This document shows, piece by piece, positions 3,622 through 42,308 of a stretch of 64,000 nucleotides of DNA. The notes beneath the pieces were generated by a model. That model was not told where the DNA came from, made no database searches, and worked only from the letters and a program-made list of their open reading frames with translations. Within the stretch, counting starts at the first letter, position 1. Each line of letters begins with the position of its first letter. The DNA comes from Eledone cirrhosa. Lineage: Eukaryota. The stretch is taken from assembly GCA_964016885.1 (NCBI GenBank), contig OZ024741.1:17236001-17300000 (forward strand), given 5' to 3'. Position numbers and translations under genes: made by a program.

Positions 3622-3816
3622 ATAACAAAGGAATTGTGGTAAGGAACCAGATGGACCATAACGCACCAGAGTACTCAATACTTAGGGTAGCAGAGTGGGA
3701 AATAGGAAAAAGTATGATCCCGACGGCAGAGCTCAAGCCGTTTCGACGGTTATTTCTGCCCAGAAATAGCCGTCGAAACGGCTTGAGCTCTGCCGTCGGG
3801 ATCATACTTTTTCCTA
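3622..3816. mobile_element. Family A head-to-head palindrome with HHR 3' half
   Basis: Arms ~3702-3758 and ~3761-3815; GAAACGGC-UUGAGCUCU-GCCGUC (stem III plus GUC) at 3775-3797; (TA)n on both sides. Confidence 0.85.
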
Positions 3817-4664
3817 TATATATATATATATATACACAGACATACATATAAATATATATATATACATATACATACACACATGAATTTTATGAGCAAATAA
3901 ACACTTCCATTCTGAATCAATAGGAGGGATATTCTACTGAAGAGGGAATGTGGGGTTGTTTTGGATGATGTGGGTAATGTGTTATTCAAACAAACAGGCT
4001 TGCTTATGGAAACAGCTCCCTTTGTGAAAAACCAGCTCCCTAAATGAAACAAAGGCTTCTTCTCTATGAAGATTAGGATACATGTATAAATAGTGACCCT
4101 CCTAAATGTTCGGGGTCAACGAATATATTTTTTAAAATGTGAATCAATATATCAATCAATATATATATATAGTTATATATATATATATATAGTTATATAT
4201 ATATAACCCTCAAGCGTGAACCTAATACTAACACTTTGTACTGCACTTTTCGTTATTGTTTTTATTCTGTTTTAACACACACACACACACACACACACAC
4301 ACACACACACACACATATATATATATATAATATATAACTATATATATATATATATATATATATATATATATATATATATATATATATATATATATATATA
4401 TATAGTTTATATATATATATATATATATATATATATATATATATATAATATATATATATATATATATATATACACACGCACATATATATATATATATATA
4501 CACACGCACATACATATATATACGTATATATGTATGTATATATAATAATACGTAAATAAACAAATGCAAAATAAATAAAAGTTACTCTATTTAAGAAGAA
4601 TCTAGATAGATAACGGTCGGACGTGATGGAAGTGGAGGTCATAGGGTGGCTGTTTGATTGCGGT

Positions 4665-4880
4665 GGGAGTAGTGGTGGTGGTGATGGTAGTGGTGCTGGT
4701 GGAGGTGGTAGTGGTGGTAGTGATTGTGGTATTGGTATTGGTGGTGGTTGTGCGGTTAGGTAGTCATTATAGTGATGGTGGTGGTGATTGTTGTGGTGCT
4801 GATGGTGGAGGTGCTGGTGGTGGTGATTGGTGTGGTGCTGATGGTGGAGGTGCTGGTGGTGGTGATTGGTGTGGTGCTGG
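4665..4880. repeat. (GGT)n-rich low-complexity tract
   Basis: Direct reading. Confidence 0.9.
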
Positions 4881-5186
4881 GGGATGCTGGAAACAAAAGC
4901 TCTTAATATTCAGATCGTTAAAAAAAACCTCAAAGAAACTGTCATAAAGAACCTGTCATAAATTCTACCCAACACTATAAAAAGGCCTTAACAAGATTGA
5001 GTGATTATTAAGACAACAACAATAAAAATAACAACACATACATATATATATATCGAAATGCGAGTTTGAAATACAGTAGCATTTAAAACATTCAAACATT
5101 AATTGAATGAGCACTCAATACTGGTGCGAAGAGTTTACCAGTGTAGCAATTTATATACATATAAAATAGTTTTCAGTGGTTAGTCT

Positions 5187-5286
5187 CTGATGATGCGCGC
5201 ATGGTAATAGCGCATTGCATTATAGGAGATTAATTGATTTTCTAGACTTTACCGGCTGCTACATAAATGCACTGAAACACGTGTTA
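5187..5286 (+). ncRNA. Degenerate hammerhead with long branched stem II
   Basis: CUGAUGA...GAAA-CACGUG-UU with palindromic stem III ACACGUGU; stem I poorly paired. Confidence 0.5.
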
Positions 5287-5890
5287 TATATAGCCTGCAT
5301 TAATATGTTATTTTAATATATATATATATCGTATTTGACAGCTTATATATAAGAGGTATGTTTTTTCCCCAAAATGTTCCAGAAAATCATCCTGTGTCTT
5401 ATAAGGTCAAGGGTCAGTTTGGGTTACTGGCTAGTGGAGTTCTAGTGCTGCAGTTGCCCTTAAATTAAACGGCAAACATCTCCGCAACTGTAAACAAGGA
5501 GGCGATCGCTTCTACACCAATAACAGCAACATAAATACATTTTTATGATGAACAGAATAAATTTATTTTCTCTTTCTTTTGTTTTAAAAATGTACTAAAT
5601 ATTTTAACAAAAAATACGATGTAAAGAATAAATATCGATACATATCGATACAGATTGAACATGGAGCTGATCAATAGCGAAACGCGCGTCACACCTGAAT
5701 AAACTCAATGAAAATTTGACACCTCGTCCATACTTATTATTGTTACACTCTGCTTAGTACAGCCCTAAAGTACATACTGGAGACTACGCATCGAGTGCTC
5801 ACTTTGGTGAACCAACAGTCACTTAACGTTACAATCCCTATATATATATACATGTATATATATATATATATATATATATATATATATATA

Positions 5891-38376: not shown

Positions 38377-38831
38377 AAAATACGTCGTTTAGAAAGCCAC
38401 AACAATGCAGAGGGAAATCTCGAGGTAGGAAGTGAAAGATAGATAGGAGAAACAGGAGAAAGTGAAAATTGAGAGAGACAAAGATGAAAACAAGACAAAG
38501 GTAGAAGGGTTACCGTAGTGGAGATTTAATCCCAATATTTCGGGCTCACGCCCATCAACGGGGGAAAGTTCCAAAAGGGGGGGAACAGGCCAAGCGGAGA
38601 AAGTTGTGATGTCGTTAAGACAGGAATGCCGTTAACGGAACTTTCCCCCGTTGATGGGCGTGAGCCCGAAATATTGGGATTAAATCTCCACTACGGTAAC
38701 CCTTCTACCTTTGTTTTGTTTTCATCTTTGTCTCTCTCAATTTTCACTTTCTCCTGTTTCTCCTATCTATCTTTCACTTCCTACCTCGAGATTTCCCTCT
38801 GCATTGTTGTGGCTTTCTAAACGACGTATTT
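38377..38831. repeat. Inverted repeat, ~195-bp arms, 64-bp spacer
   Basis: Arms 38377-38572 and 38637-38831; nearly identical ORF peptides on both strands. Confidence 0.95.
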
Positions 38832-39890
38832 TACACATTTCACAATGCTTCAAGCAAACTTTAACACCCTCTTATATATATATATATATATATATATATA
38901 TATATATATATATATATGTATTATATATATACAAATATATATATAATATATATATATATATATATATATATATATATATATATATATATATATATATATA
39001 TATATATATACAAATATATATATATAATATATATATGGAGGGGCCCCCTCATACAGAAACAATTAGAATACACAGCCCCCCCCCCCATTTTACATATCAA
39101 AGTTAGCTTGGCGCAATTAGGAGTGAAAAGTTATACATACAGGTATTAGATTATAAAATTCTAACCATCCTAAAACTAAAAAGCCCAGTAGAAGGCCCGA
39201 ATAAATTGCTATGACCGCCGTTGGTACGATCCCCACAACAGGCGGCCCGAGGCAATTGCTGTCTTTGTCCTCCATTTAATCCGGCCCTACGAACAGACAC
39301 CTCAAAATCTCCCTGTCTCAATCTTAAAAAATTCCGCCGATCCAACCCCCTCTCTTCATTGCTACATTATTCATCGACCCCCGAAAGTATGAAAAAAAAG
39401 TTGCATGGTTGACCTCGATTGGGTGTGAAGTGAGAAGAGGGCCGGAAGAAATATGACGACATTTAACTCGATGTTGTGACGACTGTGGCAATTTGCCGCT
39501 TAAGTAAATAATAAATAAAAGGAAGAATATTAAAAGATACCGGAACTGTTTATGTTACAAACCGTCGTTTGTTATATTAGAGCATTGTTGGTTTGTTTGT
39601 TGGTTTTACTTCTCCAATTAACAAAATCACACAAACAGTCCTTTTAATACAATCTGCTTTTCATATATAAAAACATTGACAGGTTGGGGCTATGACAAAA
39701 GACAAATAAACAACGGAACTTGAAAGGTGACGTTCCAGATTTAAAAATACCAAGTCTTGACAGTGTAACAGTCCAGAGTCCCTCTCTGAATCTCACTCCC
39801 AAATCTCTCTGCCTGCAGACACACACAAAAATATAGATACACACACACACACACACACATATATATATATATATATATATATATATATAT

Positions 39891-40121
39891 ATAGGAACGA
39901 GTAGGACCTCGACGGCTGAGCTCAAGCCGTTCCGACGGCTGATTCTGGACTTTAAAAACAAAAAATCCCTTTTTTCTTTTAGTCCAGAATCAGCCGTCGA
40001 AACGGCTTGAGCTCAGCCGTCGGGGGTCCTACTCGTTCCTATTACCCACTCTACTACCCTAAGTATTGAGTACTTTGGTGCGTTATGGTCCACCTGGTTC
40101 CTTACCACATTTCCTTCGTTA
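39891..40121. mobile_element. Family A palindrome with AT-rich spacer
   Basis: GATTCTGGACT...AGTCCAGAATC; spacer ~39952-39980. Confidence 0.9.
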
Positions 40122-42141
40122 TATATATATATATATATATATATATAGAGAGAGAGAGAGAGAGCGAGAGAGAAAGAGAGAGAGAGAGAGAGATGTAAAA
40201 TCTTGTGTTGGCGTTAATTATATATATGTGTGTGTGTGTGTGTGTGTGTGTGTGTGTGTGTGTGTGTATCTAATGTATAAATATGTAACAGAGAATTGGT
40301 TTCACCTATTCAACTTGATTACACTATATGATATAATAAAGGTAAGTTGAATATGTAAAGGCATCTCTCTTCTGTTCGTAATATTGATACACCGTCTGAC
40401 ATCATATACATAATACCTTATGGTACCTACGACGTGGGGTACTTACGTTTGATTACACGAAAGTTAGGCGATTGCTTGTATCAACCAACACTGATTATTG
40501 AAATAAATATAAGGCGGCTGTAGTGTGTAGAGTGTAAATAGAGTAAGTAGGATCGAAGTCAATAAAGTTTGTACATATGGTTGCAACACACAGGCGCCTC
40601 GTTTGCCTTTAAAATATGGGGGTGGAGGACAAACTAACATTTGTTGATTCTTAAAGGAGCATAAATTACTTATGGTGCCTTTCCTGGACCCTATCATATA
40701 AGTAAAATGTTATGCTAATTACATTTTATATATTCAAATGAAGTTCAGATATAAAAAAAATAAGCTTAAAAAGAATTTATTATATCAAATAAACAAAAAA
40801 TAAAATATAGACTTTTGAAAAAGTGTGCGTGTGGTGTGTGTGTGTGTGTGTGTGTGTGTGTGTGTGGGGGGGGGTTGTCCTTGGTACCCTGCTGAAACAA
40901 GGCCCTTGCACACACACACACACACACACACACACACACACACACACACACACACACACACACACACACACATGTATATATTAGTGTCCGAAACATTAAG
41001 ACCCTCTTCCTGCTATATCGAACGTTAACCTAATGTATCCCTTCCATATACTGTACCGATTGTGTTGTTATTTCTGTTTACCTTTTACACACACACACAC
41101 ACATATATATATATATATAAAACATATATATACACACACATATATATATAGAAAGAGAGAGAGAGAGAGAGAGAGAGAGAGAGAGAGAGAGAGAGACATG
41201 GCCGAGTGAAATTCGATTCACTATACTGCAGATCCGTTAGGATACCATTGTGTGGTATTTTAGACAAATGTATTTTACGATTACACTGGGGAATTCTATG
41301 TTCGAGGGTGAAATTATGTAGGCAGATACTATGTGGAAGCCTATCGGGTGGATTTAAGCAGTAAAACAAAGATACAGATAATCTTTATTCTAACATAATA
41401 TAACAAATCGATTGCACCTGTAATTATAAGGTGTAACTTCGGTATACACTACGTTAAACTGATTGAGTGTTCAGGTGATCGAACAACTTTTACGTACGTG
41501 TCAATCAGTGTGTGTGTGTGTGAGGAGGGGGCAGTGCATGTATCTCATACTTGTCCCAATAGCTTATTTTAGTTATTGCTCGCACCAACCTGAGGTATAT
41601 GATTTTTAATGCGATGAAATACCAATGATGGTTGGCAAATCACTGACGAGGGACTAATTTTATAATATGTAATCCATGTGCAACCATGCAGTATTCTTCT
41701 CCCCTTGTTTTTCATATATATATATATATATATATATATATATATATATATATATATATATATATATAGACAGATAGATAGTGAGTATACGTGTGTGTGC
41801 GATAGTGAGAGGCGTTATAACACATACAGATATATAGACATACACAGGTACACTTATGTACACACACACACACACACTCACACACACATCACTCACACAC
41901 ACACATACACACACAAACACACACACTCACTCACTCAAACACACACACACAGATATATATATAGGTGTATATAGATATATATATATAAAAGGCAAACAGA
42001 AATAACAAGGCAAACGACACAGTATAATGAAGAATATACTTGGTTATATATATATATATATATATATATATATATATATATATATATATATATATATATG
42101 TGTGTGTGTGTGTGTGTGTGTGTGTGTGTGTGTGTGTGTGT

Positions 42142-42308
42142 ATCCCGGGTTCAATCTACGGTAACCACAGTAAGGTACTCAATACATAGCAGAGTATGAA
42201 TATTTAATATAGAAATGGCTTCTACAGGACTAGAACTGTTTCATTCGAAAGAAATCATCTGATGATTTCCTTCGAATGAAACAGTTCTAGTCCTGTAGCA
42301 GCCATTTC
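42142..42308. mobile_element. Family B palindrome centred on CUGAUGA
   Basis: ATCATC-T-GATGAT centre at 42260; core CUGAUGA...GAAACAG...CUGUA at 42259-42297 (+). Confidence 0.9.

Follow-up and report, generated by a model that had tools for sequence, protein, structure and literature searches.

A 64,000-nt stretch of the Eledone cirrhosa genome (GCA_964016885.1, contig OZ024741.1, positions 17,236,001–17,300,000 of the forward strand; hereafter the window) holds a series of head-to-head palindromic inserts, some of which are centred on a hammerhead ribozyme, and it raises the question of what sets their point of inversion; the original prediction was that the ribozyme dictates the architecture. 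The origin of the tandem or inverted ends of Penelope-like elements (PLEs) and of their one-sided tail is a stated open question (PMC2377424; available parts of PMC8557442 and PMC11167929). The answer favoured here, at roughly two chances in three, is that the palindromes are PLE insertions in (TA)n at which cDNA synthesis on one RNA is primed from both cut ends and proceeds in each case to run-off at the capped 5′ end.

The palindromes and their families

Self-BLAST of the window gave palindrome centres at 3759.5, 9524.5, 25174, 36033, 39966.5 and 42260, and junctions at 10340, 15517 and 24163 were found at the bases given in the original prediction (Table 1). All nine predicted positions stand, except that 15517 and 24163 mark where inverted tandem arrays join asymmetrically and are not centres; the family D centre is at 24173. 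Every palindrome is head-to-head, left arm antisense and right arm sense as had been claimed, and tails-in neighbours number only four among families A, B, H, J and G, all of them in A and each split by a TA run. The outer 3′ ends are close to (TA)n: within a generous search window, 69/70 A and 31/33 B pairs have (TA)3+ in the vicinity of both ends; target-site duplications are unreadable within such targets. That the centres fall on the ribozyme was correct for A and B, where they overlap it, and incorrect for two inserts within the same span that had been left out, namely the family H palindrome at 35127, whose centre precedes the ribozyme core by 42 nt, and the family J pair at 38604–38636, one arm of which ends 77 nt upstream of a core-like motif. 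The family G centre at 9524 is in stem II as stated, a position which, judged by eye, is atypical of G. For A, “stem II” is unreadable from the window, where no A copy has the ribozyme 5′ half; longer copies elsewhere place the ends in the 3′ side of the long loop II and the first bases of the stem II 3′ strand (stems read by eye).

Table 1. Inserts and related copies in the window. Signed positions count from +1, the site at which arm 5′ ends pile up.
Feature	Position	Strand	Details
B long copy	2423..2768	−	TATAAATA 2588–2581; inferred start A 2558; tail to 2423
B long copy hammerhead	2557–2509	−	intact; CUGAUGA 2552–2546
I long copy	3175..3371	+	TATAAATA 3175–3182; inferred start A 3206 (TCACT); CUGAUGA 3270 (+65)
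A palindrome	3625..3814		tailed arm (−) ends +5, tail-less (+) starts +4; centre 3760
G palindrome	9365..9591		centre in stem II, ~+121 of family pile-up; atypical of G
A tailed arm	9701..9838	−	partner reduced to 9-nt remnant
A palindrome	10226..10397		tailed arm (−), 23-nt deletion between direct GACGGC repeats; centre 10340
Second D inverted insertion	10487..11342		right arm starts 43 nt past predicted cut
A solo tailed arm	11390..11530	−	ends near +1
E inverted pair of arrays	15187..16020		312-bp hammerhead unit; 3′ ends at unit positions 129, 168; right arm begins inside CUGAUGA, 15517
G solo	16719..16909	−	ends at pile-up site ACTATCC, 88 nt upstream of CUGAUGA
D insertion	22475..24409		3.6 tandem 468-bp hammerhead units (−) and 249-nt inverted arm; 5′ ends 22 and 5 nt past predicted cut; 4-nt microhomology
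A palindrome	25115..25311		tail-less (−) ends ~+6; spacer AG; tailed (+) starts +1, G before
A solo tailed arm	32966..33110	−	ends at +1 or just above
A asymmetric insertion	34074..34176		tail-less arm (−) to +2 and tail-only stub (+97 to +140); absent from original prediction
H palindrome	34976..35339		arms end +2/+1 (35127); core UUGAAAA at +43; absent from original prediction
B palindrome	35907..36088		arms end +13/+10, in CUGAUGA; centre 36033
J inverted pair	38378..38872		arms end −2, +61; ribozyme-like motif +75 to +100; absent from original prediction
A palindrome	39891..40120		29-nt A/T-rich spacer; arms end +1 and ~−3
B palindrome	42141..42306		arms end +9/+7; centre 42260

As had been noted, the arms differ by few substitutions (mean 1.5 per 45 nt; 37/45 A pairs non-identical), and 20 of 67 differences are CpG transitions. 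A check in raw reads, made against family references and not against the window's own loci, returned opposite-strand joints of A and B in Illumina reads of three 2026 samples with the same species label; strand-switch joints also occur in contigs of a fourth sample. For B, read depth rises about 10-fold across +1, and strands switch at +4/+4, +4/+7 and +4/+21, also with the tailed side ending at +68 to +81, adjoining site 1 (see below); for A, joints pair −1..+11 with +54..+100, and the depth step is confounded by an AATT restriction site at +8. Because matching joints of A and B occur in raw reads, the palindromes are real; they are stubs of Penelope-like elements.

Judged on its motifs, family A is a Hydra-clade PLE. 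It has a single ORF in which a C-terminal GIY-YIG endonuclease comes after the RT; this 743-aa frame, with FDIES, YRDD and VIY...YIG, has 195 homologues with E down to 1e-186; Pfam gave no match for it, and the domain calls rest on motifs. P0001 carries RWR, DKT and CNLC, a CNCPDGSIC linker is found in 3 distinct copies, and of 122 proteins 101 have DKT and 104 CxCX5C; by eye, CxH is present and CCHH absent. Sequence of the pLTR/tail lies directly upstream in 19/25 ORF 5′-end loci, a partial tandem pLTR. According to the available part of PMC8557442, PLEs of the Hydra clade, which have a C-terminal endonuclease, have in common with family A the RW[KR]-type, DKT and YRDD motifs, the CxCX5C linker, a GIY-YIG-like C-terminus, CxxC and CxH, as well as a pLTR hammerhead, (TA)n targets and an inverted 5′-truncated copy with the tail at one end; family A differs in its tail (78 nt versus 30–40), in an element length of ~3.8 kb and in a core that is mostly CUGAGAA. 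Families B, G, H, I and J are provisionally assigned to PLEs by architecture, B and G also by a tail motif resembling that of A. Families D and E are tandem type I hammerhead units of 468 and 312 bp, with no coding ORF seen, and in this resemble the non-LTR retrozymes covered in the part seen of bioRxiv 10.64898/2026.07.22.740005; they differ from these in forming inverted pairs with two alternating 3′ ends, which ties them to the two-site priming described below.

Two 3′ ends and one 5′ end

In family A, +1 is followed by site 1 (+62), site 2 (+140) and the ORF ATG (+232), and TAT comes next at both start sites. All 137 inverted pairs (A 79, B 35, J 18, H 5) consist of one tailed and one tail-less arm, that is, an inverted 5′-truncated copy with the tail at one end; the same is true of 5/5 pairs in G and of 33/33 A pairs outside the loci selected for A. 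Each family has two fixed 3′ ends and each insertion one of each; in family E pairs the same two alternate. The arms usually duplicate the same 60–250 nt, with the tail on the 5′-shorter arm in 33 pairs and on the 5′-longer arm in 15. Junctions are nearly all distinct (46/49 in A, 25/26 in B) and partner arms carry common subfamily variants; in A, both partners pass +1 in 18 pairs, both end near it in 47, and 1 pair is mixed. Priming from both ends of a break, one of the two routes originally proposed, is supported by the one-tail rule, the distinct junctions and the variants common to partners, although gene conversion between arms could mimic a common template. The other route, fold-back, is not supported: it could not produce the 33 pairs in which the tail is confined to the 5′-shorter arm.

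At the 5′ end, tailed arms, tail-less arms and solos all stop at one place, with ends spread over ~20 nt: between −5 and +15 lie 63/73 of the arms reaching that interval in A, 63/83 in B, 13/15 in H and 26/35 in J, and in the preceding 20 nt end 11/84, 6/89, 0/15 and 2/37, respectively. This pile-up falls in loop II in A and at stem I in B, and in H, I, J and G it precedes the core by ~40–90 nt; it keeps a fixed distance, ~30 nt, below a TATA-like box and none to any ribozyme landmark. The +1 was set after the pile-up had been seen, family I being the sole check made afterwards, and there a perfect box stands at −31. In four B references TATAAATA is at −29 to −33 (~2–3% of positions match equally), H and G2 have a one-mismatch box at −30, and the matches in A1, A2, J and G1 are weak (2–3 mismatches; 16–60% of positions match equally). 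Set against TATA and initiator consensus motifs, B and I have a strong context, H, G2 and A1b a moderate one and A1, A2, J and G1 a weak one; all references except J have pyrimidine-pyrimidine-A at +1. For G, the start first guessed from a TATAAAA located 28 nt above the core proved incorrect. A G adjoins the first base at 16/25 junctions versus 8/54 elsewhere (P=3e-5; A and B only, with only 25 arms scorable at +1), and on both arms in three loci (L024, L169, L205). Such an excess of untemplated-like G would be given by a copied cap, to which untemplated G in L1/SVA has been attributed (PMC3287187). No ORF-bearing copy stops at the pile-up (0/13, versus 63/73 arms), and since these copies cross it, it is not a structural stall. 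The pile-up is thus likely, as far as sequence can tell, a capped RNA 5′ end and putatively the transcription start. In agreement with this, the Penelope promoter is located in the pLTR; it speaks against it that the D. virilis promoter was described as TATA-less (PMC2377424).

The ribozyme and other explanations

In B, D, E, G, H and I a type I hammerhead core comes with GAAA, UH and three stems, the stems judged by eye. The core is canonical in B, D, E, G and I; that of H (UUGAAAA) is a U3-A8 variant of the kind described in the available part of PMC4209133, that of A is CUGAGAA in 52/65 long copies (C3-A8 mismatched) and of U3-A8 form in 7, and that of J (UUGAUGG) is non-canonical. A hammerhead pattern search gave 22 matches versus 0.5 expected; Rfam hammerhead models gave none at the gathering threshold and none among the best 150 of 475 weak hits, and minimum-energy folds gave no hammerhead fold. 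Ends linked to the ribozyme are a minor class. In A, where cleavage is predicted after +41, they lie at +42 to +50 and comprise 3/19 ORF-bearing copies (+45 to +50) and two partner arms (+42, +45); J has 4/49 arms at the hairpin base (+92 to +94), E 8/27 arm ends inside the ribozyme (P=0.01), D 4 arms 5–43 nt past the cut and G, by eye, ~7 arms at the 5′ edge of stem I.

That the ribozyme sets the centre, either by stalling RT at its helices or by providing a cleaved 5′ end for run-off, would account for these minor clusters in A, J, E, D and G and for the overlap in A and B, and is nonetheless improbable: the cleavage site lies downstream of the main pile-up in A, B, G, H, I and J, the core follows that pile-up only after 42–88 nt in H, I, J and G, most long A copies have a mismatched core, and ORF-bearing copies pass the site. 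As a main rule, the claim that the ribozyme dictates architecture thus gave way to the constant distance from the TATA-like box. Another processed RNA end, such as a 3′ splice site, might be suspected from the AG at +1/+2 after a pyrimidine-rich stretch in A and B and from the intron end at the helix I 5′ end in D. virilis (PMC4209133, part seen), yet 96 A and 41 B arm junctions have no common upstream exon, G, I and J have no AG there, and an acceptor in spliced RNA gives RT no end, so that this explanation is highly unlikely.

Fold-back, in which the cDNA snaps back and copies itself or, as proposed in the available part of PMC3846280, antisense RNA primes itself, agrees with the microhomology by which many junctions overlap (12 in A, 10 in B), with the variants common to both arms and with the D junction at 24163 (4-nt overlap, 13-nt loop). 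A self-copy, however, would repeat one 3′ end, which no pair does; with the tail often on the 5′-shorter arm and G adjoining +1 on both arms of three loci, fold-back is very unlikely. Amplification of a few transcribed palindromic master loci, SINE/MITE-like, with centres diversified later by palindrome repair, is quite unlikely too. With no stop site required, it would explain why the centre is fixed and why each copy has a single tail, and some junctions recur (L169/L205, L174/L185) or have similar A/T spacers (L013, L014, L172); but junctions are otherwise distinct, L174 and L185 have their tails on opposite sides, tail-less/tail-less pairs are absent, many subfamilies and six families have the same geometry, and the one-tail rule extends to kilobase arms. 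A sequencing or assembly fold-back artefact, finally, is barely credible: the region is AT-rich and microsatellite-rich, some tandem units are 100% identical and the read-level evidence is at family references only, but the arms differ and show CpG decay, their tails are asymmetric, and the joints recur in four other samples, three by reads and one by contigs.

Priming, templates and related systems

In the favoured reading, each end of the cut target would be extended along one RNA, from the two start sites internal to the element, until the cDNA runs off at the capped 5′ end; the centre would then likely mark the pLTR transcription start. Both arms would come from one RNA molecule, with the site-2 cDNA either displacing the site-1 cDNA or halting at it, which would leave a tail stub; the A insertion at 34074..34176 has such a shape, an L1-type inversion without duplication. 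The two cDNA 3′ ends would be joined by end-joining with microhomology or untemplated bases. Because no ORF-bearing copy ends at +1, a second template class is needed as an extra assumption: long, ORF-bearing and tandem copies would come from templates without an end at +1, either read-through RNA or a ribozyme-made circle, the latter also proposed for retrozymes (PMC4209133, part seen).

A more far-reaching version, possible though rather doubtful, is that an RT dimer always primes both cut ends on one RNA, one target end per start site. Capped mRNA could then yield only stubs, twin strong-stop products, and tens of thousands of palindromes would record transcription start; gene-bearing and tandem copies would arise only from ribozyme-made circles, which have no 5′ end, and the hammerhead would be a switch between dead-end and productive templates, explaining pLTR regeneration. 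A parallel is retroviral minus-strand strong-stop DNA, whose synthesis begins close to the RNA 5′ end, so that the short cDNA soon reaches the cap and runs off there. The stubs differ from it in that target DNA would be their primer, two would be made, and they would end up in the genome as a dead-end palindrome, with no strand transfer evident.

The favoured reading has close relatives. For Poseidon_Ac in vitro, the available part of PMC11167929 describes two RT start sites flanking the tail, nicking and extension of both strands, AT-rich targets, a predicted dimer and no need for ribozyme cleavage, and reports that the strands did not differ in start site and that no homology was seen at priming; in E. 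cirrhosa, the two sites are each used a single time per insertion and there is a defined point of 5′ run-off. Adineta vaga Penelope palindromes (PMC3846280, part seen) have an inverted pLTR, a junction palindrome, an optional tail and TATA plus a TCACT initiator-like motif in the pLTR; they were explained by antisense self-priming, whereas here tail polarity argues for two sense-primed cDNAs. In L1 twin priming (PMC11702581, part seen), priming from the other target end takes place inside the same RNA and end-joining follows, and the tail-stub class of the present inserts has the same shape; there the second site depends on chance microhomology and the arms barely overlap, whereas here both sites are fixed.

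A scattered sample of 0.8 Mb held 18 pairs, which corresponds, as a rough lower bound, to at least ~60,000–70,000 hairpin-forming inserts in the genome. If the favoured reading is true, the two start sites seen in vitro would be linked to the two target ends in vivo, antisense self-priming would be replaced as the source of head-to-head palindromes, two template classes would be predicted, and PLE promoters would be mappable from genome sequence alone.

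Genomic palindromes and the elements that form them

Junction strings place all nine palindromes of the original prediction within a few bases of their predicted centres, and a masked self-BLAST of the window recovered them together with two further clean inverted pairs in the same span (see table). The head-to-head orientation claimed for them is true of all pairs; tails-in neighbours number only four, every one divided by a TA run. Arm divergence was likewise borne out, at 1.5 substitutions per 45 nt between arms (CpG transitions make up 20 of 67 differences in family A), and strand-switch joints on family A and B references are present in raw Illumina data from three 2026 samples. 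The palindromic structures are genomic. From RAD reads on one family A locus (L061) only strand-switch joints were used; pile-ups there at 1544, 1619, 1622, 1669 and 1680 coincide with AATT sites and were discarded as restriction ends. A 19-fold step in summed contig depth, likewise from family A, does not give a copy number; diverged subfamilies influence it too.

The source genome measures 3.0 Gb, and the content-blind sample of 1.064 Mb (the window with an adjoining 200 kb, plus 80 scattered stretches of 10 kb each) was supplemented with loci derived from searches (A short, A long, B tail, J 3′ part, A ORF start, E). Arms less than 84% identical to the references were excluded, with the loss of older subfamilies, and duplicate loci and arms cut at a locus edge were removed. 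Loci found by A queries were left out of the A distribution, B and J central hits were chosen on the 3′ part only, and 5′ ends were counted with one reference per arm.

Among these repeat families, A is a Penelope-like element (PLE) whose long copies read, upstream, into a frame of 743 aa that carries RT motifs and motifs of the GIY-YIG type and has 195 homologues; Pfam gave no match in either of two ORFs tested, this frame included. Family A agrees with the Hydra clade, as described in PMC8557442, in DKT, the RW[KR] motif, the CxCX5C linker and (TA)n targeting, and a pLTR or tail lies directly upstream in 19 of 25 of its ORF-start loci. Counted from +1, the base at which arm 5′ ends pile up, predicted cleavage falls after +41, the first fixed 3′ end (site 1) at +62, the second (site 2) at +140 and the ORF ATG at +232; the 78 nt separating the two 3′ ends are the PLE “tail,” and the element sequence after each 3′ end is TAT, the same as the target. 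Architecture, not an ORF, was the basis on which B, G, H, I and J were classed; the hammerhead units repeated in tandem are 468 bp long in D and 312 bp in E. The motif ACTC(T/C)...TTGAGT(A/G)C recurs in the tails of A, B and G and of an older A-like copy, and is a candidate reverse transcriptase binding element.

Positions of additional features (L numbers denote genome loci outside the window)
Feature	Sequence	Position	Observation
Clean inverted pair	window	35127	Family H
Clean inverted pair	window	38604	Family J
A-run/T-run long spacers and stuttered repeats at centre	window	39952-39980	
Same	L013, L014, L022, L025, L172		
Older A-like palindrome	L157	3358-3563	Arms differ at three neighbouring stem II positions; possibly from two different RNAs
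Further inverted repeats, unassigned to the studied families	window	29221-29457, 29547-29643, 36355-36461, 26140-26440	29547-29643 is directly upstream of a hammerhead motif at 29665
Tail motif (A, B, older A-like copy, G)	window	40048-40075, 35940-35975, 36305-36335, 9420-9450	
Family A TATA-like box and inferred start	L061; L097	1629-1712; 4890-4972	Inside ribozyme loop II
Upstream ORF, family A	L241	+104	13 codons; overlaps tail, ahead of main ATG
Second Hydra-like ORF fragment	L195	7907-9787	Long low-complexity insertions between RT end and endonuclease
Direct 77-78-nt tandem of B ribozyme segment	L184 (B reference)	1418-1495	Site 1 joined head-to-tail back to -14; seen in contigs and in three samples' raw reads; perhaps a mini tandem array
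Hammerhead-bearing families C, F, K	window	27263-27478, 34193-34407, 10443-10491, 6258-6488, 7206-7354, 16985-17218, 42656-42760	Too few long copies for 5′ ends
Two long reverse-strand ORFs	L191	2-4609	Non-LTR-retrotransposon-like; beside family A copy
Tandem array	window	43196-50465	Degenerate, 7 kb
Low-complexity tract	window	53223-54482	Self-complementary, 1.2 kb
Tandem array	window	61358-61908	50-bp
Tandem duplication	window	27854-29096	Near-perfect, 615-bp

One tail per insertion

An arm ends either at site 1, without tail, or at site 2, with it, and in 137 of 137 inverted pairs one arm does the former and its partner the latter (A 79, B 35, J 18, H 5). H, like G and D, is a small sample throughout: searches of the same genome with segments of H and D, as with the A tail, recovered nothing and the one for G only its own query, very common words being skipped. 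The rule holds in 5/5 pairs of family G and in all 33 A pairs from outside the A-selected loci; in family E, the 3′ ends of pairs alternate between unit positions of about 130 and 168. The tail-selected sets, able to reveal tail/tail but not tail-less pairs, contained no tail/tail pair; the one apparent case, L243, has an arm which runs on into the ORF. In vitro, a PLE extends both strands starting at two sites flanking the tail (PMC11167929), which the one-tail pairs match.

This split speaks for priming from both ends of the break, one of two routes put forward in the original prediction. The other, fold-back of a single cDNA, fails on the 33 pairs in which the tailed arm is the one shorter at its 5′ end by at least 15 nt (in 15 pairs the tail is on the longer arm); because a folded-back cDNA copies only what it already holds, those 33 pairs require a second cDNA with its own priming. 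Almost every junction is different (46/49 in A, 25/26 in B), and arms within one insertion are closer to each other than arms of different insertions, a pattern consistent with independent insertions whose two arms share a template. The A-run/T-run spacers and stutters at some centres suggest terminal additions or slippage by reverse transcriptase.

The 5′ ends of the arms: start site or ribozyme

Arm 5′ ends gather within -5 to +15 of one base per family, +1 having been set post hoc from these same data. This base is L061:1673 in A and, in the window, 2558 in B, 35127 in H and 3206 in I. Of arms reaching this interval, 63/73 stop there in A, 63/83 in B, 13/15 in H and 26/35 in J; in the 20 nt preceding it the figures are 11/84, 6/89, 0/15 and 2/37, and in G at least 12 of about 30 arms belong to the pile-up as judged by eye. 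Since tailed, tail-less and solo arms stop alike, arm length is not what sets the site. The ribozyme core shifts relative to it (A -42, B +7, H +43, J +75, G +89, I +65); the distance from a TATA-like box is steady at 27–33 nt. Four B references match the box perfectly; H, G2 and A1b deviate from it at one base, and the match is weak in A1, A2, J and G1 (the numbered names being references or subfamilies of A and G). In family I, examined after the others, the box at -31 is perfect; judged by eye, four arms out of seven motif rows and one further pair end from -2 to about +10. A prior guess for G, a pile-up at CUGA on account of TATAAAA 28 nt above the core, failed; the larger cluster lies 88 nt upstream. 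Raw-read depth in family B climbs about tenfold across +1. The Penelope promoter is located within the pLTR and was called TATA-less (PMC2377424).

A capped RNA end, rather than a stall, is the likely reading of +1. At spacer junctions of A and B, G adjoins 16 of 25 arms ending at +1 and 8 of 54 ending elsewhere nearby (P=3e-5), about four non-G rows probably being mis-parsed partner bases, a bias which works against the G excess; in L1 and SVA, untemplated G was attributed to the cap (PMC3287187). An upstream exon common to arm junctions was looked for in 96 A and 41 B junctions and not found. The original prediction had the ribozyme setting the palindrome centres, and of this a minor role stands. 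Not only does the stopping site move relative to the ribozyme, but none of 13 ORF-bearing copies re-entering the upstream pLTR stop at the pile-up bases, versus 63/73. Ribozyme-linked ends form a minor class at +42 to +50 in A and at +92 to +94 in J (4/49), just past the cut in D (four arms), at the stem I edge in G (about seven) and in 8/27 cases in E (P=0.01), the 27 counting both L277 and L279, insertions 0.47 Mb apart that share a junction and probably arose by segmental duplication. The idea may hold for families D and E. In family A, whose cores include CUGAGAA and UUGAGAA, the ribozyme itself is doubtful: the core has a C3-A8 mismatch in 52/65 long copies. For the hammerheads in general, Rfam gave no match at the gathering threshold and hairpin/microRNA noise in an E-value scan, and single-sequence folds did not produce the hammerhead shape.

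As no ORF-bearing copy ends at +1, a second template class has to be assumed. Partner arms in family A both pass +1 in 18 pairs, mostly from loci selected for one long arm with the partner unselected, both stop in 47, and are mixed in one. With the putative family A start within loop II, promoter-started RNA would hold the 3′ half of the ribozyme only, read-through RNA all of it.

A proposed course of insertion

We propose, with a probability of roughly two in three and with +1 placed after seeing the data, two-site priming of a (TA)n cut on capped mRNA, run-off at the cap and end-joining. The PLE protein would bind the tail region near the capped 5′ end and cut both (TA)n target strands, one target 3′ end priming at site 1 and the other at site 2. 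The site-1 cDNA would extend to the cap; the site-2 cDNA might either stop near site 1, which would account for tail stubs such as 34134-34176 in the window and for the joints that raw reads show at +54 to +61 in A and +68 to +81 in B, or displace the site-1 cDNA and also reach the cap. End-joining of the two cDNAs would yield the palindrome. Long, tandem and gene-bearing arms may stem from read-through RNA or from ribozyme-ligated circles, as proposed in PMC4209133.

Inverted pLTRs, one-sided tails, head-to-head palindromes and opposite-strand hammerhead pairs were already published (PMC3846280, PMC8557442, PMC4209133). Literature searches on the mechanism of inverted pLTRs, on PLE palindromes and promoter, and on twin priming, strong-stop and cap G turned up no paper that states the strict one-tail rule, the pile-up at a start site with its G excess, or the two template classes; supplements, subscription journals and older reviews of PLEs lay outside these searches and may bear on novelty. 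The palindromes are real and the element is of a known kind; the mechanistic signature is new, testable and unlike the one originally predicted.
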